From positions 1-64,000 of IMG/VR virus record IMGVR_UViG_3300007775_000001: 64,000 nucleotides of DNA; one strand, 5' to 3'. Numbering within the stretch: the first letter of the stretch is position 1; every line of letters starts with the position of its first letter. A program made the position numbers and the translations under genes. Positions 17,244 through 62,826 of this stretch are shown piece after piece. Below the pieces are notes generated by a model. That model was not told where the DNA came from, made no database searches, and saw only the letters and a program-made list of their open reading frames with translations. This DNA is from a virus.

Positions 17244-17621
17244 ATGCCAATCCAAGTTCCAGAGAAGCTTCCGTTCGAGGAAGGCTTCTACGAGTGCGTG
17301 TCTGACAAGCACCAAAAGTTCTGGGCAATCGTCCAGAACAATGACACGGGTAGATTCACTACCTCGTGGGGGAAGTTGGGTCGCCCCGCACAGGGAGAGA
17401 AGTCCGGTCTGCTTCAGAGAGAAGCGACAGCCAAGGTCAACGAGAAGATTCGCAAGGGGTACAAGTTCAAGATGGGTGTCGGAGCGATGGCAAAGCATTG
17501 TGTATACGCGGCTTCGAAGGTGGAGATGAGGGAAGCTATTGCCTCTCGCGGGCTCATCACTCCGGAGCTTCGGAAGAAGCATACCGGTATGGACATCCTT
17601 GCAGAGCTTGCCAACATTTGA
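17244..17621 (+). CDS. WGR-domain protein
   Basis: KFWAI...TSWGKLGRPAQ...EKIRKGYK matches the WGR pattern; ends DILAELANI. Confidence 0.75.
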   Translation: MPIQVPEKLPFEEGFYECVSDKHQKFWAIVQNNDTGRFTTSWGKLGRPAQGEKSGLLQREATAKVNEKIRKGYKFKMGVGAMAKHCVYAASKVEMREAIASRGLITPELRKKHTGMDILAELANI

Positions 17622-17634
17622 GTTCTCTTTTTTG

Positions 17635-17663
17635 TTGACAACCCTGTAGTCATGTAGTACAGT
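17635..17663 (+). promoter_or_regulatory. Sigma70-type early promoter
   Basis: TTGACA-17 bp-TACAGT with TGTAG. Confidence 0.8.
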
Positions 17664-17704
17664 GGTTTTGAAGGATCAGATTGAACCTGAACGGAGTGGC
17701 GACC

Positions 17705-18592
17705 ATGAATGACATCCAGAACGCGGATCGTCGTGGAACGATGATCTATTGGGAAGTGAAGGACTTCGGGGCCACAAGAGATCAGTTGGAAGCTTTGGGC
17801 TTCGGGAATTATGTTCCCCGCAACAAGGCTCGCGCGGCTTTGATCAAGGCCCTGAAGAAGATCACAAAGGGCGAGCAGGAATTCTACCGTCGATTCGCGG
17901 ATGAGCCCACGTCGGTACGCTTCGCGGTCGTGAATCCGGAGACGGTGCAGACCCGTGATCACGCTGGCAAGGCCAACATCGACATCGAGTTCCACAAGCG
18001 GATCGTGATCCATCTGGACAAGAAGACGGAGAACCTGACCATCGTCTCTGGCGATGACATGACCTTCTTCAACGCGATCCAACGGGTCTACTACCGCGAA
18101 CGTGAAACTCTGGACGCTCAGCAATTCCGGGCCTTTGTAACCCGCGTGGTGTTGGAGGTGGGTCGCGGTGTGCCGATGCGAACGGCTGGCGGAATCTACT
18201 TTATCGACAACCGGAAGGTTGAGGTTCTGGATAAGCTGACTCAGATTTTCGACCAGTATCCGGGGACTTCGACACTGTACAAGGTGGGTCTGTACGGTGA
18301 CCCCGATTCGATGGTGGCTCTCCAAGAAGCTGTGTCCACCGATATTGCTTCGGAGATCGACACGATGATCCGTGAGATGTCTGAAGACACAGTAGAACCG
18401 ATGACTCCCCGGATGGTGCAGACCCGTAAGGATCGGTTGGATGAAGTGCTGGGCAAGGTGGAATTCTACCGGAACGTGCTTAGCAACCGGTCGGTAGAAC
18501 TCAAGACCCGTGCAGAGCAACTGAAGGCTGCGGTGACTGTCTACACGGGAACGACGCACCAAACCTTTCTGGACATGCTGGAAGACATCTAA
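17705..18592 (+). CDS. Conserved phage protein (DUF3150/DUF6744-like)
   Basis: VPMRTAGGIYFI motif and helical C-terminus; ATG 17705 follows the leader motif. Confidence 0.5.
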   Translation: MNDIQNADRRGTMIYWEVKDFGATRDQLEALGFGNYVPRNKARAALIKALKKITKGEQEFYRRFADEPTSVRFAVVNPETVQTRDHAGKANIDIEFHKRIVIHLDKKTENLTIVSGDDMTFFNAIQRVYYRERETLDAQQFRAFVTRVVLEVGRGVPMRTAGGIYFIDNRKVEVLDKLTQIFDQYPGTSTLYKVGLYGDPDSMVALQEAVSTDIASEIDTMIREMSEDTVEPMTPRMVQTRKDRLDEVLGKVEFYRNVLSNRSVELKTRAEQLKAAVTVYTGTTHQTFLDMLEDI

Positions 18593-18631
18593 TAGGAGGG
18601 GCCTTGGCCCCTCCTCTGTTCAGAGCTACCC

Positions 18632-18660
18632 TTGACCTTTTGTAGCACATGTAGTACACT
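18632..18660 (+). promoter_or_regulatory. Sigma70-type early promoter
   Basis: TTGACC-17 bp-TACACT with TGTAG. Confidence 0.75.
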
Positions 18661-18697
18661 ATAGGTGAAGGGTGGTTCTGAACAGAGGAGATTGACC

Positions 18698-19546
18698 ATG
18701 AAGAAGATTCGAGTGTTCTACAGCGACAGTCAGAGTGTGGATGATCGGACGCTCTTCAGTCCTTCGGTGCGCAAGCCACGGCTTGTGATGGTGGACTGGT
18801 ACAACAAGCAAGCGTTTCCGGTCAAGGTACTGAACTTCGATCCTGTGACCGCAAAAGACCTTCATCGCGTCCACGAGAAGCGGTATGTGAACGGCGTATT
18901 GAAGACCAAGCGTCAGAACGGGTTCGGGTCGCGTTCAAAAGCGATTGCTCAAAGTCTGCTCTGGACTTCGGGTTCGATGGTGGCTGCGACACTGGATGCC
19001 ATGAAGACTGGTGGTGTGGCTGTCAGTCCCACGAGCGGTTTCCATCATGCCGGATACTTTGGTGGTGGTGGCTTCTGCACGTTCAACGGGCTCATGCTGG
19101 CTGCTCTTAAGGCGTTCGATGCCGGTGCCAAGAAGGTTGCGATCCTGGACTTGGATCAGCACTACGGCAACGGGACAGACAGTATCATCAGAGAGCTTCG
19201 GCTGAAAGACAAGGTGGCCCACTGGACTCTGGGTAGCTCTGATGTTAACACGAGAAATGCCCACTTGTTCATTGACTGGCTCCCTGGTAAGATCGAGCAG
19301 TGCTTCGCTGGAGCGGACGTGCTGATCTACCAAGCCGGTGCGGATTGTCACAAGGATGATCCGCTGGGTGGCCGGTTCACTACTGAGCAGATGTTTCTTC
19401 GAGATCGCGCCGTCTTCCAGACGGCGAAACGGCTGGGTCTTCCCGTGGCGTGGAATCTCGCGGGTGGATACCAAGACCCTGTGGAAAAAGTTGTGGCAAT
19501 CCATCGCAATACGATGATGGAAGCTATCGACACGTATCTCAGCTAG
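18698..19546 (+). CDS. Zn-dependent histone deacetylase family protein
   Basis: GFHHAG, GGGFCTFN, ILDLDQHYGNGT, YQAGADCHKDDPLG and AGGY motifs intact. Confidence 0.92.
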   Translation: MKKIRVFYSDSQSVDDRTLFSPSVRKPRLVMVDWYNKQAFPVKVLNFDPVTAKDLHRVHEKRYVNGVLKTKRQNGFGSRSKAIAQSLLWTSGSMVAATLDAMKTGGVAVSPTSGFHHAGYFGGGGFCTFNGLMLAALKAFDAGAKKVAILDLDQHYGNGTDSIIRELRLKDKVAHWTLGSSDVNTRNAHLFIDWLPGKIEQCFAGADVLIYQAGADCHKDDPLGGRFTTEQMFLRDRAVFQTAKRLGLPVAWNLAGGYQDPVEKVVAIHRNTMMEAIDTYLS

Positions 19547-19557
19547 TGGAGATCGGC

Positions 19558-19827
19558 ATGTCGTTCAATGTGACAGAAGAGACGCTTGAGATCGATGCTG
19601 ACAACATGAAACCAACCAGTATTCGGTTTGACGCGGATCAGAAGAAGTACCTGAAGGCCCTGATGATTGCTTTCCGCAAGAAGACGGGCGAACGGGCAAC
19701 GCTGGGATGGCTGATCAAGAAGCTCATTGAGACAGCCGTCCCAGCGTTCCTAGAAGAGTACGGGATCACTTCGGAAGAGATCAGCGAGATTGAGAAGACG
19801 ATCAAGGTGGTCAAAAAAGAGGTTTGA
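19558..19827 (+). CDS. Small putative DNA-binding protein (ribbon-helix-helix-like)
   Basis: KPTSIRFDADQKKYLKAL..TLGWLIKKLIE strand-helix-helix pattern. Confidence 0.4.
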   Translation: MSFNVTEETLEIDADNMKPTSIRFDADQKKYLKALMIAFRKKTGERATLGWLIKKLIETAVPAFLEEYGITSEEISEIEKTIKVVKKEV

Positions 19828-19852
19828 CTTTCTGTATGACATGTAGTACAGT
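19824..19852 (+). promoter_or_regulatory. Sigma70-type early promoter
   Basis: TTGACT-17 bp-TACAGT with TGTAG. Confidence 0.8.
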
Positions 19853-19894
19853 TTGATTGTGGTTGAACGAGTAACCTGAACGGAGAGATTGACC

Positions 19895-20794: not shown

Positions 20795-21161
20795 GGACAT
20801 GGAGAGGGTCATCCAGCCGGTTGATTTCAACAGGGTGAACAGGGTTGATTACCGTTGTTCATTCGACTGGCCGGATGACTTCTACCTTCAGTGTCATCGT
20901 AATCTGAGCTTTGATAATCAGTTGAAGAACGTGTTTGAGGTTTTCACGTCTGAGGGCGAGTTCATCAGAGCTTTCGCCACAAGTCTACAAGAAGCAGAGC
21001 GAGCAGCCTGGGATTACTACAACGAGATGGTGAAGGACTGTCCGCATCCGATGTTTGAGAAGGTGGAGGACAATACTGACGGGGCCGGGAATTGCAAGAT
21101 GTGTGGAGTCTTCAAGTCCGGAGTCTTCAGGCCGCAACAGACCCCGTCCTACAACGCTTGA
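20787..21161 (+). CDS. Hypothetical protein with Cys/His cluster
   Basis: 124 aa; CPH...CKMC. Confidence 0.55.
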   Translation: MSRDMERVIQPVDFNRVNRVDYRCSFDWPDDFYLQCHRNLSFDNQLKNVFEVFTSEGEFIRAFATSLQEAERAAWDYYNEMVKDCPHPMFEKVEDNTDGAGNCKMCGVFKSGVFRPQQTPSYNA

Positions 21162-21167
21162 GGGATC

Positions 21168-21410
21168 ATGGCCGAAGATATGGACACCGTTCTTGGGATG
21201 GCATTCGGGCAGAAAAAGCCCGCTAAACCGGAACGCAAGGGGTTCACGCGGCGGCTGGATGCACCTGATCGTGATCTGTCGTGGGCGCACCAAGTCGAGC
21301 TAGTTCAGGACGAGGAAAAGCTTGACACCAATGCCAAGAAGGCAGAATTCGACCGGCAGATCGATGAGGCCACTGCACCTGATTTCATGAGTGACCTACA
21401 AGACATTTGA
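21168..21410 (+). CDS. Hypothetical protein
   Basis: 80 aa; ends DFMSDLQDI. Confidence 0.55.
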   Translation: MAEDMDTVLGMAFGQKKPAKPERKGFTRRLDAPDRDLSWAHQVELVQDEEKLDTNAKKAEFDRQIDEATAPDFMSDLQDI

Positions 21411-21435: not shown

Positions 21436-21471
21436 AGTACCGTAGTGAGGAACCTGAACGGAGAGATTGAC

Positions 21472-23325
21472 ATGAGCGGTTTTCATTTCCTCAGTGCGAT
21501 GCAGCGCATCGGTCGGACGATTGCCCGCCAATACGGGATCAACGTGATCTACGAGGGCAACAGTCCCGGCACCGATGGCAAGACCATCGTGCTTCCCGAT
21601 GTCCAAAACCTGACCGATGAACTTCGGCATGATCTTGATGGGTATCTTGATCATGAGGTCGGACATTGCCGACACACTGATTTCAACGTTCTGCGGAGCG
21701 TTGACAATCGGTTCCAATCGGAACTGCTGAGTGCGCTGGAAGGCGTGCGGGTGGATCGTGAGATGATTCGCGATTACCCTGGCAGTCAGTTCCACATCAA
21801 CGATTTGAACGACAAGCTTCGCGCCAAAGCTGCTGAGAAGTGGGTTGGCACTCCCACTGCGATTCGGCTTCTGCATGGTGTTCGTGACGGGATGCGTGGT
21901 CAACCCATTGTGAGTGACCACGACACAGCCCGTTATCTCGATGCCTTGGGTGATGAGATCAGCAAGCTCAACACCTACACTTCCACTGGTCAAATGCGAG
22001 ACGCTACCGCTCGCATCATGAAGATCATCCTGGAAGAACGAGAGCGCGAGCAAGAAGAGCAGCAACAGCAGCAACAGCAGCAACAGCAAGCCGGTGGTGC
22101 TGGTGGTGGTGATTCTCAATCCAAGGGTGGTGGTCAGAAGCAAGAAGATGGCGACCAGGATCAAGAAGATGGCGACCAGGATGAAGACCAAGATCGGAAG
22201 GGTGACGGTGATGGTGGTGGGGACAGCGAAGACCATGACCAGGAGGGTGAAGGGGACGGTGACCAGGATCAGCAAGCCGGTGGTGGTGCTGATGAGAAAT
22301 TCGATGACATGATCACTGAAAACAGCGGTGCCGACAATTCCGAATTCGACAACCATGCGACCAACCTTCAGCAATTGATGAACGGTAACATGGCTCCCGA
22401 AATTGAGGGTGAACCGGAAATACAAGGTGGTCGGCCCTGGCATGACGGTTTCAGTGATGCCAAGCACATTCCCCTGACTACCCGGTTCGATCAGATTCAT
22501 GACGTGTCGGGTGGTGGTGATCCTGTCCGGTACAACGTTCTCCGGAACAAGGTCAAGGGGATCATGAGTCCGATTCGCCGCGAGATGGAACGTGTTCTGA
22601 AGGTGAAAGAGAACGCGCGGTGGCGGATGGATCGTGAGCGTGGTCACATCAACAACCGGTCGTTGTCTCAATTGGTTGCGAGCCCTGGCTTCCGGACTCC
22701 CTTCAAGGAATTCCAGAAGACTGAGACAACCAACGTGGCGATTCAACTGCTCGTTGACCTGTCGGGTTCCATGGCTGGCTCTAAACTTCAGACGGCGAAA
22801 GAGGCTGCGACAGCCATGGCCGAAGTTCTTCGCTCCCTGGATATCCCGTTCGAGGTGACCGGGTTCCATAGCGAGGGTGACTACGACATGCAAAAGGTGG
22901 CGCGCGAAGTTGGCGATATCAGTCGCTTCAATCGGACTCATGAACGGCTCGATCATTGGGTATACAAGTCGTTCGGGGATTCGCGGATGGATGGTATCAC
23001 GCGGATGGAGTCCGGTGGCAACAACACCGATGGTGAGTCGGTGCGATGGGCAGCGGCCCGTCTGGCAGAGCAGAAACAGAAACGGAAGATCATGATTGTC
23101 TTCAGTGACGGTATGCCTGCCTGCCATGGCAACATGAGCATGCTCAACGGTGACTTGGTGCGCGCGGTCAAAGAGATCGACCGCTCCGGGATTGAAGTGG
23201 TTGGAGTGGGTATCGAGCACAATGGAGTGAGTCGGTTCTACCCTAACAACATTGCGATCAACAACGTGGAAGACCTGACCGGTGGTGTGCTGCGGAAACT
23301 CTCTTCGATGTTGACAGAGGCATAG
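21472..23325 (+). CDS. CobT-like protein: HExxH domain, acidic Q/D/G linker, C-terminal VWA
   Basis: DHEVGH; poly-Q/acidic linker; MIDAS DLSGSM; IVFSDGMP. Confidence 0.88.
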   Translation: MSGFHFLSAMQRIGRTIARQYGINVIYEGNSPGTDGKTIVLPDVQNLTDELRHDLDGYLDHEVGHCRHTDFNVLRSVDNRFQSELLSALEGVRVDREMIRDYPGSQFHINDLNDKLRAKAAEKWVGTPTAIRLLHGVRDGMRGQPIVSDHDTARYLDALGDEISKLNTYTSTGQMRDATARIMKIILEEREREQEEQQQQQQQQQQAGGAGGGDSQSKGGGQKQEDGDQDQEDGDQDEDQDRKGDGDGGGDSEDHDQEGEGDGDQDQQAGGGADEKFDDMITENSGADNSEFDNHATNLQQLMNGNMAPEIEGEPEIQGGRPWHDGFSDAKHIPLTTRFDQIHDVSGGGDPVRYNVLRNKVKGIMSPIRREMERVLKVKENARWRMDRERGHINNRSLSQLVASPGFRTPFKEFQKTETTNVAIQLLVDLSGSMAGSKLQTAKEAATAMAEVLRSLDIPFEVTGFHSEGDYDMQKVAREVGDISRFNRTHERLDHWVYKSFGDSRMDGITRMESGGNNTDGESVRWAAARLAEQKQKRKIMIVFSDGMPACHGNMSMLNGDLVRAVKEIDRSGIEVVGVGIEHNGVSRFYPNNIAINNVEDLTGGVLRKLSSMLTEA

Positions 23326-29102: not shown

Positions 29103-29354
29103 ATGATCTCTGATAAGCGACCAGAGACATTGAAGGACTATCAGTACATCGTTGGCGAAGCTTACATGGTCGCCATGAGGGAATGGCTAAGCTTGCCTCG
29201 TGATGAACAGACGAGTGAAACACGAGGCAAGCTGTTCCAACCCGTCTTGGATTACATAAAGGAGCATACCCTGAGATGGCCGCTCAAAGCCGTGGACAAG
29301 TTGGGAAACGTCATAACAGATGTGGATGTCATGGAAGAGCTAAAGGCTCTGTAG
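29103..29354 (+). CDS. Hypothetical protein
   Basis: 83 aa, strong RBS; ends DVMEELKAL. Confidence 0.65.
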   Translation: MISDKRPETLKDYQYIVGEAYMVAMREWLSLPRDEQTSETRGKLFQPVLDYIKEHTLRWPLKAVDKLGNVITDVDVMEELKAL

Positions 29355-37584: not shown

Positions 37585-37848
37585 ATGGCAAGAAACTTCA
37601 GGTGGAAGGATTCTGGTGTTGATCTGTCGAGGAGAAAGTTTCTCAATGATCTTGATGCTGAATCGAAGGGAAGGCACGATTTTGGAGAGTTTAGAACCAA
37701 GAGTGGCGAATATAAACAACTCCCGTCAGACGGTGATGGGTTTGTGGACTGTCCACCAAAGATGGTAAGGTATGTTTCACCGATCAAACAGAGAGGGAAG
37801 GATGCTGCAAGCGATATCGACATCCTTGCGGAACTGAAAGATATTTGA
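37585..37848 (+). CDS. Hypothetical protein
   Basis: 87 aa; ends DILAELKDI. Confidence 0.6.
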   Translation: MARNFRWKDSGVDLSRRKFLNDLDAESKGRHDFGEFRTKSGEYKQLPSDGDGFVDCPPKMVRYVSPIKQRGKDAASDIDILAELKDI

Positions 37849-42242: not shown

Positions 42243-42255
42243 GTTGACAAAGCAA

Positions 42256-42720
42256 ATGGCCGAGAGTACAACTGATGTCAGCATCGAGATCGATGAGTTG
42301 GTTTCTGACCCCATCAAACTGAAAGTCAGAGAAGCTCTTCACATTTCTGAAGACATCGATCACGAGATAGACAAAGCAGCCGGTGATTACGGCTACTATG
42401 CCGTGCTTGCGGAGAAAGCAAACTCGAAGCTTCAGCGAATTGAGTATGGCTATATCCAGTGGCGCGGTACTGCTGAACACAGCAAGCAAAGAGAGAGGGA
42501 AGCACAACGATTGAAGCCTTTGACCAAAGAGCAGATGGTTTCCTACATCCACTCTCTCCCACGATATGCAGCGTTTAGGTTGACACTCGTGAAGCTCACT
42601 GAGCAAGCAGGCTCTCTGAGAGCGATTGCAAAAGCCTTCGAGGTGAAGGCTGGATTGGTGCAAACCAAGGCTAGCAATCGCAGGAAGGAGATGGGAATAT
42701 CTAAGCGTCCAGGTGCTTAG
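42256..42720 (+). CDS. UvsY-like helical recombination mediator candidate
   Basis: All-helical, about 150 aa, in the recombination block. Confidence 0.45.
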   Translation: MAESTTDVSIEIDELVSDPIKLKVREALHISEDIDHEIDKAAGDYGYYAVLAEKANSKLQRIEYGYIQWRGTAEHSKQREREAQRLKPLTKEQMVSYIHSLPRYAAFRLTLVKLTEQAGSLRAIAKAFEVKAGLVQTKASNRRKEMGISKRPGA

Positions 42721-42765
42721 ATTGTCAGCGCACTCGTGCGCTCAACTCTAGTTTGTGAGGTCGTG

Positions 42766-43806
42766 ATGGAAGGTCAAGCAAAGCCGGTGGCCGTCAGTGA
42801 AGAACAATTCGCTGAAGACCCTCGTGGTGATGGAGTTGTCGATGAATCCGAAGCTGTGTTCCAGGCTTCGGAAGAAGCGGAAGCTCAGCCAGAAGATCAG
42901 AGCGGTGATGAGGAAGCCGCTGCTTCTGGTGAGGCGGCTCCTTCGGAAGATGCTGCTGTACCGGCAGTGGTGGAACATGCTGTTCCTCCTCAACAGGCTG
43001 AGGCGATGCGTGACCAAGCGCGCAATAGCTATCGGTCTCTTCAGCGTGGCTGGTTCGAGTTCGCCAAATCGATCGCTCAGATCGTGGACACATCGGCGTA
43101 CACAAGCCTGGGCCACGAGTCCTTCAAATCTTTCTGCGAAGCAGAGTACCCGGACATTGCATACTCGACGTTGACCAAGTACGTCGCGGTGGTGCATCAG
43201 TACGGGGAGGAGATCGAAACTCGTCTGTCTGCGAATCCGGAGACGGTCGTTCCCGCTCTGGAGTCCCTGTACCAACTCGCGTCGGCACAGGGCCGGGTGG
43301 AAGAGGGCGACCGCTCCACGGCTCGCAAGCTGAGCAACCTGATCAAGAAGGTGTTCGAGGGCAATCTGTCCTATCACAGCTTGCGTGACAAGCTGGCAGA
43401 ACTTCGCGAAGCCTCGACGGGAACCGATCAAGCTTCTTCGACCGAAGCGGAAGTACACGGGATCGAAGAACAGCTTGCAGGTGAGGTTGTCGATGAAGTG
43501 ATGGCCGAAGGTGAAGAGGTCTCTGCTGTCGAGGAGGGTGCCGTCCCGAATGCGGAGCGGATCGTGAGCATCATCATGTCACAGATCGTGCCGCTGAAGG
43601 ACAACATCGCCATGCTGGAAAATGTCCTGACCACTGACCAGAGTCAGGTCACTGATGAGGTGGTGAGCGGCATTACGGAGATCGAGAATTTCCACAATCG
43701 GGTGAACGACTTCCTCAACGCCATGGAGAGATTGTCCAATGGTGGAGAAGAGCCGTCCGTCGATGCTCCCGTGGAAGTATCTCAGGGTGAAGAGGCAGGC
43801 GAATAG
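42766..43806 (+). CDS. Acidic protein with central putative HTH (DUF3102/partition-protein-like)
   Basis: WFEFAKSIAQI...AYTSLGHESFKSFCEAE...YSTLTKYV. Confidence 0.45.
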   Translation: MEGQAKPVAVSEEQFAEDPRGDGVVDESEAVFQASEEAEAQPEDQSGDEEAAASGEAAPSEDAAVPAVVEHAVPPQQAEAMRDQARNSYRSLQRGWFEFAKSIAQIVDTSAYTSLGHESFKSFCEAEYPDIAYSTLTKYVAVVHQYGEEIETRLSANPETVVPALESLYQLASAQGRVEEGDRSTARKLSNLIKKVFEGNLSYHSLRDKLAELREASTGTDQASSTEAEVHGIEEQLAGEVVDEVMAEGEEVSAVEEGAVPNAERIVSIIMSQIVPLKDNIAMLENVLTTDQSQVTDEVVSGITEIENFHNRVNDFLNAMERLSNGGEEPSVDAPVEVSQGEEAGE

Positions 43807-43852: not shown

Positions 43853-44788
43853 ATGAGTCTGACTGACAAGCTTCAAGAAGAAGCGAAACGACAGAAGGAA
43901 CGCAAGGCTGAACAAGGCGACTTCGAGAAGGTTGACTGGTTCAAGCCCAAGGATGGTGACAACATCATCCGGATCATGCCTCACTGGAGGATTCCCGAAG
44001 AGCTTTTCTTTGTGTCGGTGATCCTGCACTTCAGTATCGAGGTGCCCAAACAGGACGGATCGGGAACCATCCCCATTCCGGTACGGTGTCCGGCCAATGA
44101 GACACCGGCTCGCAAGTGTCCTATCTGTGAACTGATCGACAAGGCCAACAAGGAGCAGAAGGCGTTCTTCAAGGACGTGCGTCCTGTGGAACGCTACCTG
44201 TACAACGTCTTTGTGGCCGCCGAAGAGAAGATCAAGCCGTATCCGGCTCCTCTCACGGTGCACCAAGGAATCTTCGAATGGATTGAGGAGATTCCGAATC
44301 CGGTCGATCTGGACACGGGACGGGCATGGAAGTTGGTCAAGGAGGTGGACAAGACCAAGAGTGCTGCGTTCGGCACCAAGTACAAGGTGCGGCCAAGCAT
44401 GAATCCGTCTCCATTCCCAAGCAAGTTCCGCGAGCTTGTGCGGGATATGACCGACCTTTCCAAGCTGTATGGTGAAAAGCACGACGACGCTCTTAAGCGT
44501 GTCGCTGTGTCTCTTGCCAAGAAGGCTGGGATGATTGCGGTGAAAGATGATATCCCGTACGAGACAGGCCCGAAGTCAGATGAATTTGCTGAGGCACCCA
44601 AGCAGGCCGCGAGTGCTCCAGCGAAAGATGAGTTCGGTGATGCCGCTCCTGCAAAGGACTCGAAGCCTGAGTTTGCGGATGATTCTCCTTCCGAAGAAAG
44701 TTCTGAAGAACTCTCTCCAGAAGACATGGGTATCCAAAGCAGTGATGCTGAACTGAACGCTGAACTGAAGGCTCTGGGTATCGAGTAG
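43853..44788 (+). CDS. Single-stranded DNA-binding protein (gp32-like)
   Basis: WFKPKDGDNIIRIMP, H..C..CPIC zinc site, long acidic tail. Confidence 0.75.
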   Translation: MSLTDKLQEEAKRQKERKAEQGDFEKVDWFKPKDGDNIIRIMPHWRIPEELFFVSVILHFSIEVPKQDGSGTIPIPVRCPANETPARKCPICELIDKANKEQKAFFKDVRPVERYLYNVFVAAEEKIKPYPAPLTVHQGIFEWIEEIPNPVDLDTGRAWKLVKEVDKTKSAAFGTKYKVRPSMNPSPFPSKFRELVRDMTDLSKLYGEKHDDALKRVAVSLAKKAGMIAVKDDIPYETGPKSDEFAEAPKQAASAPAKDEFGDAAPAKDSKPEFADDSPSEESSEELSPEDMGIQSSDAELNAELKALGIE

Positions 44789-47385: not shown

Positions 47386-48182
47386 AACCAAGTCTTCGGA
47401 AGCAGTACGTTGGGAAGGAGTTTTCAGTTCTCGACCATGGTTTTGTGCAACTGGTCGATGTGATGGGGGATGATGGTGCTATCGTTTCTGCTGCTCGTAC
47501 TTCAGTCCACAATGTCAAGACGAGTCGTGATACGCGGGGTTTGATCAACTATCTCATGCGGAACATGCATACGTCTCCGTTCGAGATGGTTGAGTTCAAG
47601 TTTCTCTGCAAGATGCCAATCTTTGTGGCCCGTCAGTGGGTGCGTCATCGGACAGCTTCGATTAATGAGCAGTCTGCTCGCTACGGTGTGATGGACGATG
47701 AGTTCTACATGCCTGAACAGTGGCGTGTGCAATCCAAGAACAACAAGCAGGGATCATCTGAAGAGGTTGTGGATCAGTTCTACACGGGTCGCATCCAGAC
47801 CAGGGCTCAGGAGATCAGGAAGGAAGCGTACGATCACTATCAGAATCAATTGAACATTGGTGTTGCTCGCGAAGAGGCGCGGATCGATCTACCCCTTTCT
47901 CTCTACACCAAGTGGGTGTGGAAGATTGATCTACTGAATCTGTTCCGGTTCTTGAAGCTTCGGATGGACTCACACGCTCAGTACGAGATCAGGGTCTATG
48001 CGAACGCCATGGCAGAGATCGTGCGTGCTTTTGTTCCGATAGCTTGGGATGCGTTTGAGGAGCACTGGCTATACGCCAAGACGCTTTCTCGCAGTGATTA
48101 CGATGCGTTGAAGAAATTCGCTGTGACAGGAAGCCTTCCAGCCGAAGCAATGCGAATCCTTGGGATGCCACTCGCGACATGA
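47382..48182 (+). CDS. thyX: FAD-dependent thymidylate synthase
   Basis: HTSPFE, RQWVRHRTASINEQSARY, LRMDSHAQYEIR. Confidence 0.96.
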   Translation: MKPSLRKQYVGKEFSVLDHGFVQLVDVMGDDGAIVSAARTSVHNVKTSRDTRGLINYLMRNMHTSPFEMVEFKFLCKMPIFVARQWVRHRTASINEQSARYGVMDDEFYMPEQWRVQSKNNKQGSSEEVVDQFYTGRIQTRAQEIRKEAYDHYQNQLNIGVAREEARIDLPLSLYTKWVWKIDLLNLFRFLKLRMDSHAQYEIRVYANAMAEIVRAFVPIAWDAFEEHWLYAKTLSRSDYDALKKFAVTGSLPAEAMRILGMPLAT

Positions 48183-48610
48183 GCAAGCTGCTTCGATTCA
48201 TTGGTGCATTCATCAGAATGTGGTGGGTGTACCAATGGGTCAACATGGATTCGGTGGTTCCGCGTCACGATTTCGATCCACGGCGCACGCGGATTTATAT
48301 GCTCAGCGTTGCTGGTCAGATCGTTCTTAAGCCTCGTTCTCAGGTTCATCTATCGAAGATGCGTGATCGCTGGGTGAACGAGATGCAGCGGGTGATGGAT
48401 TCGACGGGGTTTCTGATCAGGCGACGGGTATTTTGGGGAAGCAAGTTCGTCTCTCAAAAGCGAGCCTTCTTCATCTTGTTCAGGCGCATCAAGAAGAAGG
48501 AGAAGTGGAGACTGCGGTCGTACCGTGCTACCATGAGAACACGGCTGCGTTCATTCGGATATTGGTTGCTGGACGGGACACCAGAAACGGTTCTTACCTT
48601 CAGAGATTGA
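48179..48610 (+). CDS. Basic hypothetical protein
   Basis: 143 aa coupled to thyX. Confidence 0.5.
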   Translation: MSKLLRFIGAFIRMWWVYQWVNMDSVVPRHDFDPRRTRIYMLSVAGQIVLKPRSQVHLSKMRDRWVNEMQRVMDSTGFLIRRRVFWGSKFVSQKRAFFILFRRIKKKEKWRLRSYRATMRTRLRSFGYWLLDGTPETVLTFRD

Positions 48611-48611
48611 C

Positions 48612-50411
48612 ATGAAGATCACTAGACTGAAGCTCAACAACTTCCTGAGCTACAAGGAGCAGGAATTCTCCGACTTCGATGGGCCAGCATTGATTCTGAT
48701 CGAGGGTCACAACAAGGATCAGGGTGATTCGAACGGTTCTGGCAAGAGCAGTGTCTTCGACGGAATCTCGTGGGCACTATTTGGTCAGACTCTTCGGGAC
48801 TCGAAGACCGATAACGTCATCAACAGAGATGCAAAGAAGGCAGGTTGCTCCGTTGAACTCGATGTGGAGGTGCAGGGCAAGGTCTTTCAGATCGTACGTT
48901 TCTACGGTCATCCGTCTGAGAAGAATAACCTTTACCTGAAGGAAGATGGGACAGATGTCACATTGGGCACAACAACCCTGACCCAAAAGTTTCTTAAGAA
49001 GGCTATTGGGATCGATTTCGATCTGTTCCGCTGCACAGTTGTCTTCGCTCAGGGCGAAACATTCAAGTTCATAGACGAGACGGACAAGAAGCAGAAGGAG
49101 ATTCTGTCGAAGATCATGCGGATCGATTTTGGCCCACTCTTGGATAAGTCCAAGAAAGAAGTCTCTGGACTGGAGTCAAAGCGATCCGACGTTGAACGGG
49201 TGATTGTGTCCCTGGATGCCAAGCTGGAGATCAATCCTGAAGAGACCTACAAAGACGAGGTCGAGAAGTGGGAGAAAGAGCACCAGGAATCGATTTCCAG
49301 GGCTGAACGGATTGTTTCTGAGGCACAGGATAGGCTTGATGGAGAAGGTTCCTTGAAAGTCGATGTAGAGGCCCTGAAGGTTACTCGTGAGAAGATCGTT
49401 GATCGTATCTCGGCAATCGAGAAGTCCATCGATGAGATGCAGGACATGCGTACCAACAATCTTGCCGATCAGCGGTCGTTCGACAGTGAGTTGAATCGCT
49501 TTAACAAGCTCGTTGCTGATGGCAAGTGTCCTACTTGTCTCCAGGCCGTTGAGGCTCATGATCTGAAGAGCGAGATTGATACCCTGAAGATCAAGCGCCA
49601 TGTGGCTACGGATGCTGCTCAGAAGGCAGAGAAGGTGATCGTGGAGTGCCGTAACTCCAAGACTGAATTCGAGGCCAAGAAGGATAAGATCGATACGGTC
49701 ATCGCTGAAACAGAAGCCCACAAGAAACGGTTGGCTAATCTGGCCGATGTGCTTGAGCAGGGCAAGAACGCTCTGAATACCATCAAGACAGAGGTCAACC
49801 CGTGGGCGGATCGGATCAAGCGTGAGATGGAGGAGTACGAGAAGACCAAGTTCAAGCGTCAAGAGGCAGAGAAGAAGGTAGCGGAGATCGATGAGAAGCT
49901 TCGTTATGCTCGTTTTTGGGTGACTGGATTCGGTGATTCTGGCATGAAGTCCTTTATCTTCGATCTGGTATGCTCGTCTCTCACATCGAAAGCCAATCGG
50001 TACGTTGGTATCATGACGGATGGAATGGTATCCATCGTGTTCACCACACAGACCAAGCTCAAGAGTGGAGAGGTCAGGGAACGTTTCTCGTGCGACATCA
50101 TTACAAACGGTGAGCGTATTCCGTACGAGAGCTACAGTGGTGGCGAGAAGACGCGTATTTCACTTGCGGTTGATCTTGCTCTGTCTGACGTGATGTCGGA
50201 TTACTATGGGTCTCAATTCAATGTTGCTGTGTTCGATGAGCAAGACCTGTACATGGACAACAAGGGGCGAACGAGCTACATGAATCTGCTGAAGGAGGTT
50301 GCTCAGCGGAAGCGTGTGTTTGTTGTGGCTCACGATGACGTGTTCAAGGGTGCTTTCAGTGACTCATGGATCATCGAGAAGGAAGGTGGTTTCTCGAAGA
50401 GGGTGGCGTGA
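48612..50411 (+). CDS. Rad50/SbcC-like ATPase
   Basis: NGSGKSS, coiled coil with CPTC hook, YSGGEK, VFDE, VVAH. Confidence 0.92.
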   Translation: MKITRLKLNNFLSYKEQEFSDFDGPALILIEGHNKDQGDSNGSGKSSVFDGISWALFGQTLRDSKTDNVINRDAKKAGCSVELDVEVQGKVFQIVRFYGHPSEKNNLYLKEDGTDVTLGTTTLTQKFLKKAIGIDFDLFRCTVVFAQGETFKFIDETDKKQKEILSKIMRIDFGPLLDKSKKEVSGLESKRSDVERVIVSLDAKLEINPEETYKDEVEKWEKEHQESISRAERIVSEAQDRLDGEGSLKVDVEALKVTREKIVDRISAIEKSIDEMQDMRTNNLADQRSFDSELNRFNKLVADGKCPTCLQAVEAHDLKSEIDTLKIKRHVATDAAQKAEKVIVECRNSKTEFEAKKDKIDTVIAETEAHKKRLANLADVLEQGKNALNTIKTEVNPWADRIKREMEEYEKTKFKRQEAEKKVAEIDEKLRYARFWVTGFGDSGMKSFIFDLVCSSLTSKANRYVGIMTDGMVSIVFTTQTKLKSGEVRERFSCDIITNGERIPYESYSGGEKTRISLAVDLALSDVMSDYYGSQFNVAVFDEQDLYMDNKGRTSYMNLLKEVAQRKRVFVVAHDDVFKGAFSDSWIIEKEGGFSKRVA

Positions 50412-50929: not shown

Positions 50930-51251
50930 TCGTTTTGGCGAGATGGGAATGGCATACGGTCATTCCGATGTGTCGGTCGAAGAGGTGCCACGGGCAATTT
51001 TCGCTGCAACAGCGAGCACAACACGCCACTTTGGTCATATCGGTATCAGCATTCATCCGGAGAGTGGAAGAGCCTTTGTCCGGATCACGCTGAGATGGTA
51101 TGCTCGATGGAATTGGATCGTGTTGAGATGGCTTCTGAAGCGAAAGAGAGAGCGTTGGTTGAACCGGGCTGAAACACGATGCAGGATGGTTGTACCTAAC
51201 GGAATCCGTTTGGTCGTGTACTATGGCAAGCGTAAAATCGAAGACGAGTAA
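50877..51251 (+). CDS. Hypothetical protein
   Basis: ORF in a contiguous operon. Confidence 0.45.
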   Translation: MPNSNGDNASSELERAVSRFGEMGMAYGHSDVSVEEVPRAIFAATASTTRHFGHIGISIHPESGRAFVRITLRWYARWNWIVLRWLLKRKRERWLNRAETRCRMVVPNGIRLVVYYGKRKIEDE

Positions 51252-51600
51252 TTTGTTTCTTCAGATGCTCGTAACTATCAGGAAGGATCGTACCTACTTC
51301 CCGAAGGTCATTGATCAGTTCTGGGAACTGAACCATGAGCATCGCATCGCCCTGGTCAGGTATCTGATGGATCAGGTAGGCAAGGAATCGTGGAAAGAAT
51401 GGGCCGCCGATCCGACTCAGCATGTAGAGATCATCAAAGCGTTGTTGATGGCATACACGGGTCGCAAGGAACTCGATGAGCCGTCGCGCATTGATTTGGC
51501 AAAGCTGATCGGTGGCTATACTCAGACCAAGGAGTATCGCGAGATTGAGATATCGCTTTCTTCTTCTGTGAACGTCACAGAAGCTTTGGAGAACTTGTGA
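51223..51600 (+). CDS. Hypothetical protein
   Basis: Ends NVTEALENL. Confidence 0.55.
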   Translation: MASVKSKTSNLFLQMLVTIRKDRTYFPKVIDQFWELNHEHRIALVRYLMDQVGKESWKEWAADPTQHVEIIKALLMAYTGRKELDEPSRIDLAKLIGGYTQTKEYREIEISLSSSVNVTEALENL

Positions 51601-58103: not shown

Positions 58104-58658
58104 ATGAAGCAAGAATTGACATTGCGACACTATTTGAAGAGTGTCTCTCAGCTTGAGAAAGACGAGGAGGTACTTCAAGCTTTGGCCGATGCGGTTATGG
58201 GTCTGGAGGCCCATCAGTTTCTTGTCTTCATGGCGCGAGTGAAGGATACCGTCAAGACGGATGCAGGATACCGCGAATTTATCTCGTCGCTCTTCGGGGG
58301 CAAGCGCAAGGTCAATCCGCGCGACGTGACCATCTATATCAAAATAGATGGTGCGCATGAGACCACTCATAACAAGATCAGTGCGATAAAGCATTGTCGT
58401 GCAGTGACGTATGGCGAGAACATGGGTTTGGTCTGTGATCCTGACAGGATGGGTCTAAGGGAGGCCAAAGACCTCGTGGAAGCGTCGAAGATGGGTGAGG
58501 TCAAGGTCGTTCGGCTTTCTGGCAAGGGAGCCAAAGAGGCTTCCGTCCAGTTTGCGAACAATATCATGGCGTGTGGATATGACGTTCGCGTCGAGGGTGG
58601 GGACGAGGAGTATGAGAGCGAAGTCGATGACTTCATTGCGGAGCTAAAGGCACTCTGA
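58104..58658 (+). CDS. Protein with ribosomal bL12 C-terminal-like domain
   Basis: NKISAIKHCRAVT...MGLREAKDLVE; ends DFIAELKAL. Confidence 0.65.
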   Translation: MKQELTLRHYLKSVSQLEKDEEVLQALADAVMGLEAHQFLVFMARVKDTVKTDAGYREFISSLFGGKRKVNPRDVTIYIKIDGAHETTHNKISAIKHCRAVTYGENMGLVCDPDRMGLREAKDLVEASKMGEVKVVRLSGKGAKEASVQFANNIMACGYDVRVEGGDEEYESEVDDFIAELKAL

Positions 58659-59017: not shown

Positions 59018-59033
59018 TTTCTACGTAGAAACT
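59016..59033. repeat. Dispersed palindrome copy 7
   Basis: AGTTTCTACGTAGAAACT filling the gap between stop and next ATG. Confidence 0.95.
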
Positions 59034-59034
59034 C

Positions 59035-60033
59035 ATGAGCAAGAAACAACCACGTATGGGCAAGAGCCTGAAAGAAGCCCTGGACAAGAAGGTGCGTGAC
59101 CAAGCTATGATCGCCGTCATGGATCATGACTTGGGTGGCGATATGTCGGATGCTTTTCGGTATTTGCTCAAGCCCATGATAGAGATTCCGGAGAAGAAAC
59201 CCAAGGAGAATAAGCCTGTTCCTCCTCTTGTTCCTATTGTGGTCGTGGCTGTGATGATGGAAGAGATGCCCATTGACAATCACGGTGGGCATGCGTGGGG
59301 CTTCAGGTCGGTTGTGCGTCATTTTGGTCAGGGGAGCAATAACGCTCGTACATACGCTGAAGACGATCTGTCGTTGGTGTGGAGAATCGAAGGTGAGGTT
59401 TATTATCAATCGTGGGAGTACCATCAAGCTCTTGGCTACGCGATGAACTACGTAGCTCAGAAGTTTGGTGCAAAGCGATACGAGCTACGAGTTGTGGGGC
59501 CGATGAAGTCCATGGAAAGTCTTTATCCATATCTGCATTGGGACTCTCTCCCCGTGTCTGCCAAGAGTTTCACATTGAACTGTTCTGGGATCGGTGACTG
59601 GCCTGCATTCAATAACTTCGCCATGAAGGAGTTGGGTTGGAAGAAGCATGAGGTCAGTGACTTCGTGACCAATCCACCACGGTTTCCTGTGGCTTTGTTG
59701 ACCACGAGAACCCTTGATTCTGCATTTGTCTATGCTGCGAAGCTATTGAAGGTCAAGGGCACTGCCCATCTGATGACCGATCAGGTTGCTTCTCGTCTGC
59801 CTGGACATCCGCAATCGGAGCGTGACAAGTACACCTACCAGGAAGGCGGAATTACAGACGAGAAGGGAATCCGTCAAGCCGTCGTGTTACGGAGACAGTG
59901 GTCGGTTTGGCGTCGTGAGTTGGCGTCTGGCAAAGTGACTCTGAAGGAGATCGAGAAGATCATCGAAATCAACAATGGGATCGATGACCGCGAGACAGAG
60001 ACCGATATGCTCAAAGAGCTAGGGAGTCTGTGA
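59035..60033 (+). CDS. Hypothetical protein
   Basis: 332 aa; ends DMLKELGSL. Confidence 0.65.
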   Translation: MSKKQPRMGKSLKEALDKKVRDQAMIAVMDHDLGGDMSDAFRYLLKPMIEIPEKKPKENKPVPPLVPIVVVAVMMEEMPIDNHGGHAWGFRSVVRHFGQGSNNARTYAEDDLSLVWRIEGEVYYQSWEYHQALGYAMNYVAQKFGAKRYELRVVGPMKSMESLYPYLHWDSLPVSAKSFTLNCSGIGDWPAFNNFAMKELGWKKHEVSDFVTNPPRFPVALLTTRTLDSAFVYAAKLLKVKGTAHLMTDQVASRLPGHPQSERDKYTYQEGGITDEKGIRQAVVLRRQWSVWRRELASGKVTLKEIEKIIEINNGIDDRETETDMLKELGSL

Positions 60034-60034
60034 C

Positions 60035-60346
60035 ATGGTCTTTGGAATGAGAGACGCGGTTGAAAAGGAAACGAGAGACATGGCTGCTCATGAGCCGATC
60101 TTGATGAGTTCTTACATCGTGCGTCTCATTGAGGCGTATAGTGATCATCCGGCGGCGGCTGCCCAAACCATAAGCGATTTGAGATGTGCATTGGATGCTC
60201 AGTTGGCTATGGAGCTTTGGTTATTACGAGATGGATACGATTCGGCAACCGGAATCAAGCTCGATCTGAAAACGGGCAAGCCGGTCGCTGCACCAAGAAG
60301 AGGGCCAACAGCAATTGACATCCTAGCGGAGCTTGATCAGCTATGA
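60035..60346 (+). CDS. Hypothetical protein
   Basis: 103 aa; ends DILAELDQL. Confidence 0.6.
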   Translation: MVFGMRDAVEKETRDMAAHEPILMSSYIVRLIEAYSDHPAAAAQTISDLRCALDAQLAMELWLLRDGYDSATGIKLDLKTGKPVAAPRRGPTAIDILAELDQL

Positions 60347-60858
60347 GCATGAGAATCTATGACCACTACGAGTGGAAGAGGAATCTGAACTCTCTGTTTG
60401 CCTTCTGTATCGAGCTACGCAAGAAGGAGCATGCTCGTCTGAAGGCTGAGTTCATGAAGATGACCAAGGAGCAACGCGGCAAGCTGTACGATGAAACCCA
60501 TGATCGAAGGAATTTCATGCAGCGTGGGTCGTGGGAGTTCGATACGAGCATCATGATCTACCCGTATGGGCAGCGACTGTTCTTCGGGTTGTTCGGCTTC
60601 AACTACAGCAATCCGATCCTGGAGACAGTGCAGCAAGATTCGCGGGTGGTGGACTTCCATTATCAGAATCAGTCAGATCGTCCAGACCATATCTCTCCGC
60701 AAGAGTGGCGTGCGCGTCGAAGGGTGTGGGACAAGATCGGTGAGCGAAGTCATGTTTTCGCTGAGATGGGCTTGTCCTTCCAGGTCACAAGTCTGGACAC
60801 GGCAACGATCATGCTCATCATGTGTGCCCACGAGGAGAACCAATGCAACGAGAACTGA
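60343..60858 (+). CDS. Hypothetical protein
   Basis: DFHYQNQSDRPD.IS..EW..R..VW. Confidence 0.6.
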   Translation: MSMRIYDHYEWKRNLNSLFAFCIELRKKEHARLKAEFMKMTKEQRGKLYDETHDRRNFMQRGSWEFDTSIMIYPYGQRLFFGLFGFNYSNPILETVQQDSRVVDFHYQNQSDRPDHISPQEWRARRRVWDKIGERSHVFAEMGLSFQVTSLDTATIMLIMCAHEENQCNEN

Positions 60859-61304
60859 CCATCCGGTATCACATCAATCAGGATGGGCTCGATGTGATGT
60901 TCGAGTTGGAAGATCGGATCATCGCTGCAATCGAGCCGTACGGTTGCAAGATGGTGAGTGCAGGTACGATGGTGGTGGGTCGTTGGAACCGGGGTTTTCA
61001 GGTACGCGGTGACGGTGTAGAATTGGCACTCGCGAAGATCACGGAAATCATGAAGACCGCGCGTGTTGAATTCGGTCACGAGTGGCGAGACATTCAAGAG
61101 GGGTCATGAATAACAAGGAATTGTGGGTCGAGGTCGGAAAGACAGTGTGGTGGTTTATCATGGTTATTCCCGCTCTGCTCTTGTTGTTCGCTGTGGCTGC
61201 TCTGGCTGATGTGGTTGAGAAGTGGGTCAACACCAACAGTGTGTGCAGGCTATACAGGGTGATCATCCCATTCCCTGGGTGGATGAAACGAGACATGAGG
61301 CGGT

Positions 61305-61706
61305 ATGTTGATCGGAATCGTGGGAAGTAGATCGATCACTGACTACACGCTCTTCAAAGAAGAGCTTGAGAAGGTCATGGTGCCAGACCCCAAGCAGGAC
61401 ATGATTGTGTCTGGTGGGGCAAATGGGATAGACTCGCTGGCAGAGCAGTATGCACGAGCGCACGGAATCCAACCGGTGATTCTGCCCGCCTTGTGGGACA
61501 ACTTCGGCAAGGGGGCGGGAAAGATCAGGAACAGTAACGTGGTGAAGGTGGCACACATCATCATCGCATTCTGGGATCAGGAGTCACCGGGAACCAAGGA
61601 CACGATTGATAAGGCTAAAGCCAATGGGAACCTTTTCGAAGTCATCCGACTCAGACCAGGGCAAACAAGCGAGAACTCGATTGCGTGTGGTGAGTTCTTC
61701 GAGTAG
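61305..61706 (+). CDS. SLOG family (DUF2493/YspA-like) protein
   Basis: IVGSRS, IVSGGANGIDSLA, AGKIRN, AFWDQESPGT. Confidence 0.85.
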   Translation: MLIGIVGSRSITDYTLFKEELEKVMVPDPKQDMIVSGGANGIDSLAEQYARAHGIQPVILPALWDNFGKGAGKIRNSNVVKVAHIIIAFWDQESPGTKDTIDKAKANGNLFEVIRLRPGQTSENSIACGEFFE

Positions 61707-61962
61707 ATTGCTCAAGATCAACTGGTGGTTCAGGCTGAAGAGCTGGGTCGGGTTCTGGATCGGTGAGCTAATCGCTCTGGTGCTGATCGTTGTTATCTTC
61801 TTCGGTAGTGTGGTTGCAGCGGTGGCGATAGCTCTATGGATGTTGCTGGCGATGGCTCTATGGATGTTGCTGGCGTTCCTGTTCGCGAATCCAAGGGGTA
61901 TAGCATTCATGATCATCGCTCTGGCAATCGCCTACTGGATCATCACGCACTGAGTGTGAATC

Positions 61963-62826
61963 ATGGCGATGCATAACGATTTTCGAGACGATTTTCGAGA
62001 CGAGGAGCGCAAGGCCAAGGAAGACAAGGTCAGCACTCTTGCCAGAGATGCACTGGATAAGGCGCACGAGATCATTGCCAAAACGGCAGCGATCACGGAC
62101 GAGAAATTCCAGGAGGAGATCAAAAAACTGGCGAAAAAGAAAGCTCTGAAACGTTTGAAATTCAAGTTGAAGCCGCATGGCAACTACGGTGTATTGGGGG
62201 GTGTGCTCTATCCAAACCAGGATGGTAGTGGTCAGGAGTCACACTTCAAGTTTTTCGATTCGCATCTGAGTAGGCTGATCGGGAAGATGATGGCGGCGAT
62301 CACTTACGATTGGTATCCATCCTTTGTGAGTGACAAGGAGATACCGGATCATCATCACTTCACACTATATCCAATCGAGATCGACACAAGCGAGTTGGAA
62401 GGCAGACTGTGCAACGTGGTAGTGTATAGGTTTGGTCTGGAGCGAGTGAATGGCAAGCATGACGAGTTTGTGTCGAATGCGCTGGATGGAACCTATACCA
62501 AAGAGAACAGCCAGATCGTGCGGTTCAATGGGTACTCACGGCATCGGGTGATCAACAGACAGGCGTTACTCGATCACATTCGGGAAGAAGAGCGTGAGCA
62601 AATCCTGAATGTGAAGCGGTACTATCAAAGCCTTGACGCGCGGAACGGTTGGTCGTTGCATCACAATGTACCGTATAGCAAGAGCTTGGCGCGTTATGTA
62701 GAGCAACTGAGACGGTTGTGTGAGGAGGGGGATATCGAGATCGTATTCAACTCTGCATTGGCGCCTAGCACGGAACCAGAGTCCGAAAAGGGGCCTGACT
62801 TCATCGAGGAGTTGAGCAAGCTGTGA
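61963..62826 (+). CDS. Hypothetical protein
   Basis: 287 aa; ends DFIEELSKL. Confidence 0.65.
   Translation: MAMHNDFRDDFRDEERKAKEDKVSTLARDALDKAHEIIAKTAAITDEKFQEEIKKLAKKKALKRLKFKLKPHGNYGVLGGVLYPNQDGSGQESHFKFFDSHLSRLIGKMMAAITYDWYPSFVSDKEIPDHHHFTLYPIEIDTSELEGRLCNVVVYRFGLERVNGKHDEFVSNALDGTYTKENSQIVRFNGYSRHRVINRQALLDHIREEEREQILNVKRYYQSLDARNGWSLHHNVPYSKSLARYVEQLRRLCEEGDIEIVFNSALAPSTEPESEKGPDFIEELSKL

Follow-up and report, generated by a model that had tools for sequence, protein, structure and literature searches.

A recurrent acidic C-terminal motif on unrelated proteins of an uncultured phage and its likeness to the tip of the phage SSB

A shared ending on eleven proteins

The sequence analyzed here is a window of 64,000 nucleotides from the start of a complete virus record that has terminal repeats and a length of 114,950 bp (IMG/VR record IMGVR_UViG_3300007775_000001). 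Eleven proteins of this phage, unrelated to one another, end in the same nine-residue motif, D-h-h-x-[E/D]-L-x-x-[L/I]-stop (h, hydrophobic); ten of their genes lie within the window and one crosses its end. Nearly all genes of the phage are on the plus strand, and their order runs from tail, baseplate, and lysis genes to a DnaB-like helicase (recognized by sequence motifs and by homology to annotated DnaB-like helicases), a primase, and a WGR-like protein, as assigned by Pfam and motifs. After these come a DUF6744 protein, an HDAC-like protein, a CobS-like MoxR ATPase, and a CobT-like VWA protein, and further downstream a DnaE polymerase, a gp32-like single-stranded DNA-binding protein (SSB), a RecA/UvsX-like protein, Mre11/Rad50, and ThyX.

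The proteins that bear the motif, hereafter carriers, are all encoded on the plus strand, in the early/replication region and away from the head genes. Three fall within the cluster that extends from the WGR-like gene to the CobT-like gene: the WGR-like protein itself, which has 125 residues and adjoins the primase (17244..17621; tail DILAELANI, 17592-17618), the DUF6744 protein (17705..18592; TFLDMLEDI, 18563-18589), and an acidic protein of 80 residues encoded just upstream of the CobT-like gene (21168..21410; DFMSDLQDI, 21381-21407). The remaining carriers are proteins of 83 residues (29103..29354; DVMEELKAL, 29325-29351), 87 residues (37585..37848; DILAELKDI, 37819-37845, the best match to the consensus), 125 to 136 residues (51223..51600; NVTEALENL, 51571-51597, a weaker example), 184 residues (58104..58658; DFIAELKAL, 58629-58655), 332 residues (59035..60033; DMLKELGSL, 60004-60030), 103 residues (60035..60346; DILAELDQL, 60317-60343), and 287 residues (61963..62826; DFIEELSKL, 62797-62823), together with a protein of 412 residues whose gene (63007..64245) crosses the window end and whose tail, DIMRELNEL, is encoded outside it. 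A PHROGs search with the ten in-window carriers and an ESM Atlas search with two of them returned nothing useful, as was the case for IMG/VR scans with single proteins (a carrier, CobT, SSB, P0014, and P0038).

A preliminary description of this sequence had quoted ten C-termini, and all ten are present in the window as written, although the start codons of two of the genes are slightly different (17681 or 17705; 51190 or 51223). It had also labeled one carrier as WGR, an assignment with a borderline Pfam score (21.5 bits, with the cut-off at 22) that is supported by the position of the gene beside the primase, and another as bL12-like, which we do not retain, the match (E = 0.007) being below the cut-off.

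Terminal enrichment and genome-specific variants

The concentration of the motif at the exact C-terminus, as opposed to internal positions, is borne out. The strict pattern [DN][ILVMF][ILVMFT].[ED]L..[LI] has nine matches, each occupying the last nine residues of a protein, and none at internal positions (35,880 residues). With a cleaner gene set and a deliberately loose, non-circular core pattern, a second enrichment test gave 11 terminal matches against 0.65 expected (P ~1e-10). Paralogy of the carriers was ruled out, there being no similarity among them outside the tail (best non-tail E of 0.14 in all-against-all BLASTP), and the carriers of a close relative, G001, are likewise unrelated to one another. 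Nor is the tag a DNA repeat, in agreement with the preliminary description: the carriers use different codons, and the DNA 3' of their stop codons varies, containing a promoter-like site, a terminator hairpin, or an overlapping start. Because both the codons and the downstream DNA vary, the peptide is not the by-product of a nucleotide signal, and an origin of the tail in the Shine-Dalgarno site of the next gene, a promoter, or a terminator was ruled out, the downstream contexts being different from carrier to carrier.

The tails have a net charge of -1 to -3 and hydrophobic residues at positions 2, 3, 6, and 9, and their helical hydrophobic moments (0.35-0.79, against a proteome mean of 0.32) are mostly well above that mean, averaging about the 90th percentile. 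In single-sequence AlphaFold2 models, the tip of the SSB and the tail of the carrier at 58104-58658 are predicted to be helical; these models are poor (mean predicted local distance difference test scores of 41 and 55) and were read for the helical state of the tail alone. The helix predictions and hydrophobic moments, together with retention of the motif at the terminus in three related genomes, support the earlier suggestion of a short acidic amphipathic helix serving as a shared address label. The flexible linker that was said usually to precede it fared less well, being only weakly visible: in the 20 residues before the tail, polar or flexible residues make up a fraction of 0.50-0.80, where the proteome mean is 0.58.

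Homologues of the DUF6744 carrier offer a view of the tail across relatives. There are 37 that can be detected, many of them on contigs of 93 to 119 kb, and 33 of the 37 end in [DE]-F-h-x-x-L-x-x-L. Scans of IMG/VR and of bacterial genomes with a DUF6744 alignment, and tblastn of DUF6744 against cultured phages, yielded nothing useful. Two DUF6744-bearing contigs were read, G001 (110,388 bp) and G002 (a 50-kb fragment). G001 shares with our phage a capsid protein that is 70% identical and a DnaE that is 56% identical, and in it 16 mutually unrelated proteins, including a run of seven adjacent small genes, end in the core pattern, against 0.65 expected (P ~2e-17), in the form of an F-x-x-A-L-x-x-L variant; the same variant ends five to seven unrelated proteins of G002. 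Position 2 is phenylalanine in 14 of the 16 tails of G001 as compared to 4 of 11 here (Fisher p 0.011), and position 5 is acidic in 2 of 16 as compared to 8 of 11 (Fisher p 0.003). The tails of orthologous carriers follow the variant of the genome in which they are found, both for the WGR protein (EFLKALKKL in G001, DILAELANI here) and for the DUF6744 protein (DFMKSLESL in G001, TFLDMLEDI here).

The carriers themselves are far less stable than their label. Nine of the 11 have no homologue in G001, the closest full-length relative, and most carriers of G001 have none here. The carrier at 59035..60033 has a single homologue among 1.84 billion representatives, which is 82% identical and ends in DVLKELGSL, and in a 97%-identical contig (L001) the tail DFMSDLQDI of the 80-residue carrier is unchanged; altogether, three tails in the 97%-identical contig and the one in the 82%-identical protein are the same or differ at one position. 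That carrier genes turn over while the label is kept is what one would predict for a functional address read by a common partner.

One could nonetheless envision that there is no shared reader and that the tails are helix ends that converged independently and have no function in common. Acidic amphipathic helices are common, and a scan with a position matrix of the tails finds low-score, tag-like internal matches scattered across the proteome. Against this stand the terminal enrichment, with P values of 1e-10 to 1e-17 in three genomes, the genome-specific variants, and the retention of the tail on the great majority of DUF6744 homologues, and we regard independent convergence as very unlikely.

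Likeness to SSB tips and to known docking peptides

A tblastn search with CobS identified the Rhizobium phage RHEph10, which has the same size and gene order as the phage described here; both size and gene order are also common to RHph_X66 (Rhizobium), nickie (Pseudomonas), and BUCTxx99 (Stenotrophomonas). Distant orthologues of DnaB, primase, CobS, CobT, DnaE, SSB, RecA, Mre11, and Rad50 are present in all four cultured phages, with 22-33% identity between their core replication proteins and those of our phage. We thus regard them, on the grounds of this identity and the shared gene order, as deep relatives. At the nucleotide level, blastn of the DnaE gene against cultured phages produced nothing useful.

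The SSB gene of our phage (43853..44788, plus strand; Pfam gp32) encodes a long acidic linker followed by the tip ELNAELKAL (44750-44776) and then GIE, as the preliminary description had it. A position matrix was derived from the 11 tails and searched against the complete proteome (~33,000 residues) of each cultured relative. By this matrix the weaker carrier tail NVTEALENL scores 14.3-14.5, and 1.9 when it is left out. In RHEph10, the best match in the entire proteome is DVLADLDSI, the last nine residues of the SSB; in RHph_X66 it is the SSB tip AILAELDNL, followed by V; and in nickie it is the SSB tip DGLDELDDL, followed by LED. In BUCTxx99, the SSB end DIDDFLGEL ranks eighth in the proteome. 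The chance of the top match landing on those SSB positions is ~1e-4 per genome. The tag thus resembles the SSB tip of the clade, and as judged by this likeness it would belong to a class of peptide that docks partners in T4, T7, and bacteria.

In T4, a C-terminal helix of gp32 docks in a groove of the Dda helicase through hydrophobic residues at i, i+4, and i+7 (V258, L262, and F265), as seen in a crystal structure (PMC11551737). The parallels are that the SSB here is gp32-like, that an acidic, leucine-rich tail follows a disordered linker (T4 gp32 ends in DLDDLLNDL), and that the i/i+4/i+7 spacing is that of tag positions 2, 6, and 9; in T4, however, the peptide is known on gp32 alone, whereas here it is found on 11 unrelated accessory proteins, and on about 16 in G001. 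As a sequence match, the Dda-binding helix of gp32 was rejected (matrix score -1.1), the spacing alone being alike, and a Dda-like helicase was not found in this phage.

T7 offers a second precedent, in which gp2.5 (the SSB) and gp4 (the helicase-primase) have acidic C-terminal tails by which they dock on the DNA polymerase. The SSB and a further replication protein there share an acidic tail with a hydrophobic end and a single partner, but the carriers are two core replisome proteins with a terminal phenylalanine, while those described here are many, are mostly orphan accessory proteins, and have a helical motif with leucine or isoleucine. The bacterial SSB tip (DDDIPF) is likewise a short terminal docking peptide after a disordered linker, and the linker of the SSB here contains DDIPY and DEF motifs; in bacteria, however, one tail has many readers, whereas here many proteins carry the tail. 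The principle of such docking is familiar from T4 gp32, T7 gp2.5/gp4, and bacterial SSB tails, and, in line with the preliminary description, no published description of a system with this motif was found in the literature searched.

That the tail binds a protein, and which protein that would be, we infer. As the best explanation, and one to which we give about even odds, the tail would be a selected C-terminal address peptide, a docking helix of the SSB-tail type. Its terminal position on 11 carriers (with a weak linker signal), the occurrence of the motif on the SSB of the lineage, and its combination of acidic residues and hydrophobic anchors are all features of that type, and the likeness to the SSB tips of the cultured relatives favors docking in an SSB, replication, and recombination network over virion packaging or timed proteolysis, both of which had been raised previously. 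In such a mechanism, the short acidic amphipathic helix would present a hydrophobic face formed by positions 2, 6, and 9, aided by position 3, as a plug comparable in kind to the C-terminal tip in which the clade's gp32-type SSB ends. The plug would bring fast-changing accessory early proteins (WGR, DUF6744, and nine orphans) to one or more partners that recognize the SSB tail, at a docking site within the replication/recombination machinery of the phage, or, alternatively, the carriers would compete with the SSB for that site. Candidate readers include DnaE, DnaB or primase, the RecA-like protein, Mre11/Rad50, the SSB core, CobS/CobT, and genes found only in the uncultured clade, DUF6744 for example.

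Several observations weigh against this docking hypothesis. The SSB tips of our phage, G001, and G002 resemble one another and are not at the exact C-terminus (ELNAELKAL, DLEEELRSL, and DLEKEFEEM are followed by GIE, GVE, and GI, respectively), and the T4 gp32 end is weak by matrix score (5.1 bits). The G001 SSB tip keeps leucine at position 2 and glutamate at position 5, while the accessory tags of G001 have phenylalanine and alanine there; because the SSB tip does not follow the F/A variant, it is alike but not identical to the accessory tag, and the two need not share one reader. They may use the same groove loosely, or they may have different readers. In the cultured relatives, moreover, the motif is on the SSB only, and their accessory proteins use aromatic tails. 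Finally, with acidic amphipathic helices as common as they are, part of the resemblance could be convergent.

A rival explanation is a C-terminal degron. Under such a scheme, a host or phage protease of the ClpXP, Lon, or FtsH type would clear the accessory early proteins together at a set time, which would suit the exact register to the stop codon, the hydrophobic last residue, and the early, accessory nature of the carriers, and genome-specific variants would suit different hosts. In the cultured relatives, however, the same motif is the tip of an SSB, a protein needed throughout replication. The tails, furthermore, are net acidic and have polar residues among the last five, ending in x-x-[LI] with polar and acidic residues rather than in the LAA/AA of ssrA/ClpX signals, and no protease gene besides the head protease was found in the families scanned. 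We therefore consider a degron improbable.

A reader supplied by the host, such as a protein of the host SSB interactome, the beta clamp, or RNA polymerase, would send the carriers to a host hub instead. The phage has a DnaE polymerase and no recognizable clamp gene; phages whose hosts are probably not the same (GC content 0.46-0.53) have different tail variants; and the cultured relatives infect three host genera, with an accessory tail form that differs for each lineage, including the two Rhizobium lineages. Neither PF02768 nor PF09116 had a match in the complete genome, and a phage-encoded sliding clamp (gp45-like or beta clamp) was rejected for want of any clamp family match there. In T4, unrelated proteins (gp43, gp33, and gp55) bind one ring, the gp45 clamp, through hydrophobic-acidic C-terminal peptides (gp33 ends in TLDFLL), but no gp45-like or beta-clamp gene was detected here and the motif is different and longer. 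Having no glutamine and no aromatic end, the motif fits neither the T4 tail nor QL[SD]LF, the bacterial clamp-binding consensus. The similarity of the SSB tips across phages of Rhizobium, Pseudomonas, and Stenotrophomonas, moreover, fits a conserved reader encoded by the phage at least as well, and a host hub seems to us as doubtful as the degron.

Encapsulins present yet another arrangement in which unrelated cargo proteins share an address, a short C-terminal peptide after a linker that is rich in Gly, Ser, Leu, and Ile and is read by a shell of the HK97 fold. By analogy, the tail could be a capsid-targeting peptide that brings the carriers into the procapsid, to be injected along with the DNA. 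Unrelated cargo with a common C-terminal peptide is the encapsulin pattern, and a scaffold-like protein (100061-100906) has a tag-like sequence near its N-terminus, DVLKALGEL, which is conserved in G001. The C-terminus of the scaffold-like protein, however, is without the tag, the SSB carries the motif, and, in a difference from encapsulin cargo, the carriers are proteins of the early/replication region, not encoded near the head genes. Capsid targeting appears very unlikely, and it is ranked, together with the degron and the host reader, below docking of the SSB-tail type because the SSB lineage has the motif, the tails are acidic, and the carriers all lie in the early/replication region. The scaffold-like gene precedes the capsid gene, and the tag-like helix of its counterpart in G001 (81011-81808) reads QVEKALASL.

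Apart from its tip, the SSB has further features. Its linker (44450-44788) contains repeated acidic-aromatic motifs (DDIPY, SDEFAEA, KDEFGDA, and KPEFADD); comparable motifs are seen elsewhere, of the form D-A-[DE]-F or PPFD in the SSB linker of every relative and DDF in T4 gp32, and such linker motifs may make up a second element for docking, upstream of the tip. In G002, the SSB gene (47777-48946) continues across a long Asp/Glu repeat and finishes in a basic stretch, and the tip that would be expected, DLEKEFEEMGI-stop, is just downstream in another frame, probably as a result of an assembly frameshift in the repeat. Two plus-strand genes lie between DnaE and SSB, one for a phrog_1069 protein (42244-42720) and one for an acidic protein of 356 residues (42736-43806) with weak internal tag-like copies, DNIAMLENV and DFLNAMERL. 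In the same interval of nickie, a phrog_1069 domain is fused to an acidic N-terminal arm with three tag-like copies, DIDELEALL, DEDAELAAL, and DSDAELEAL. At its C-terminus, the DnaE of the cultured relatives has an additional acidic amphipathic helix, which the DnaE of our phage lacks. A PDB sequence search with the SSB and the phrog_1069 protein gave nothing useful, and a word-based search with the SSB returned only the SSB itself. Beyond the window, a protein of 115 residues (66407-66754) has DVLAEIESL followed by GETEEPPF, that is, a subterminal tag and an -EEPPF end like those of bacterial SSB tips; it may act as a plug for two sets of SSB-tail readers, those of the phage and those of the host.

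Candidate readers and the aromatic tails of cultured relatives

Among the candidate readers within the replication module, the CobS-like MoxR AAA+ ATPase (19889/19895-20794, plus strand; AAA_5 and CbbQ_C) and the CobT-like VWA protein (21445-23325, plus strand; CobT_C/VWA) are attractive because the pair is conserved in that module, because the MIDAS motif (for metal ion-dependent adhesion site; DxSxS) of the VWA protein is intact (DLSGS), and because the C-terminus of NorD is needed in NorQD. The tail could be a client or adaptor tag, with capture by the MIDAS of the acidic tail, or of the free carboxylate that it ends in, or with binding of the tail by the AAA+ ring, and with the motor remodeling the carriers and possibly the SSB. 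In all the relatives examined, the pair is part of the replication module and has no cobalamin genes in its vicinity. A MoxR ATPase and a VWA protein whose MIDAS is intact are encoded by the same element here, and three carriers lie in the WGR-to-CobT cluster. In the NorQD system, the last two residues of NorD, a VWA protein, are needed for it to co-purify with the MoxR ring (PMC13036017), and peptide capture by vWA domains has been proposed for vWA-MoxR systems (PMC7159879). The phage ATPase is of the NorQ/CbbQ/CobS type and has a VWA partner, as in NorD-NorQ, where the extreme C-terminus of NorD is needed for the complex (PMC13036017), but the contact there is within a fixed pair and is not a tag on many clients. 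A preprint on CobST describes how the CobT N-domain and a VWA finger grip CobS.

The CobT-like VWA proteins of the Rhizobium phages RHEph10 and RHph_X66 end in a tag-like helix (AVMGELKKI followed by LMK, with a score of 10.8, and QVMGEIKKI followed by LMS, respectively), which could also be taken to favor the pair, but the C-terminus of CobT in our own phage is not tag-like by score. The cluster argument carries little weight, since in all relatives WGR is found next to the primase, and the cultured relatives have the pair but no accessory proteins with this tail. On balance, a CobS/CobT reader is an unlikely explanation, if a somewhat better one than a degron or a host hub.

The accessory proteins of the cultured relatives have a tail of another kind. 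Each of these phages has a shared aromatic C-terminal tail on 4 to 10 unrelated accessory proteins, and our phage has none. Its form is N-P-x-F-G-R-F in RHEph10 and [FY]-G-x-F in the Rhizobium phages, [FWY]-G-x-[FW]-x (more narrowly, [FWY]-G-x-[FW]-[AGS]) in nickie, and Y-G-x-W in BUCTxx99, in which eight carriers of the aromatic tail are encoded close together at 27.3-29.7 kb. The protein at the WGR position after the primase is aromatic-tailed in three of the four cultured relatives, BUCTxx99 being the exception; in RHEph10 and RHph_X66 this positional orthologue is annotated as WGR and adjoins the primase. Homology between the carriers and the aromatic-tailed proteins was rejected on comparison. 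The acidic-leucine and the aromatic classes of tag seem to fill the same role in different lineages.

Taking these observations further, we tentatively put forward a plug-and-play address system in this clade of ~110-kb phages, a proposal that is more likely to be wrong than right as a whole. New accessory genes would acquire the plug of their own genome, which would be the SSB-tip-like acidic helix in the soil lineage and the aromatic G-x-aromatic tail in the cultured RHEph10, nickie, and BUCTxx99, and one reader encoded by the phage in the replication module (CobS/CobT or a clade-specific protein such as DUF6744) would gather the carriers at replicating or recombining DNA. The two classes would be interchangeable, as is suggested by the WGR protein, which carries a different tag in different lineages.

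Docking by terminal peptides is known already for a few core replisome proteins (T4, T7, and bacterial SSB) and for the clamp-binding tails of T4. Here the same device appears to be in use throughout the genome, and what is new is its extent (11 to 16 proteins in each genome, most of them orphans), the turnover of carriers, the genome-specific variants, and the apparent borrowing of the SSB tip. About one in ten early genes carries the plug, and most of the carriers are orphan genes, so that, if the docking hypothesis is true, the tail would be a handle by which phage "dark matter" genes could be sorted into one functional neighborhood, and the nine-residue peptide would be a simple bait for the hub. 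It would also suggest a possible role for the CobS/CobT genes that occur in many large phages without a cobalamin pathway. The cultured phages RHEph10, RHph_X66, nickie, and BUCTxx99 make the part that concerns the SSB tip testable at the bench.

Some features of these genomes lie apart from the tag. The DNA of the phage occurs in metagenome runs from soil and, to a small extent, in one from a wetland, with no RNA run among them; the metagenome contigs compared are identical to the window and so yield no substitution pattern. Another bias in C-termini is seen in the Rhizobium phages, where 22 of 148 proteins of RHEph10 and 27 of 139 of RHph_X66, genes of the structural region included, end in Ala-Ala, about 10 times the expected number; other phages have one to three such ends each, and here there are three among 154 proteins, none of them a carrier. 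The Ala-Ala excess in the Rhizobium phages could be an ssrA/ClpX-like signal or an effect of termination context. Among the very few minus-strand genes of our phage is one for a protein of 449 residues (12473-13822) that is kept in G001 (49% identical), G002, RHEph10, RHph_X66, and BUCTxx99. Downstream of the window, amid tRNA genes, lie genes for an acyl-carrier-protein-like protein (68629-69144), a NADAR-domain protein (70858-71289), a protein with an RF-1 domain (78451-78834), and a sigma-70-family factor (82007-82702).

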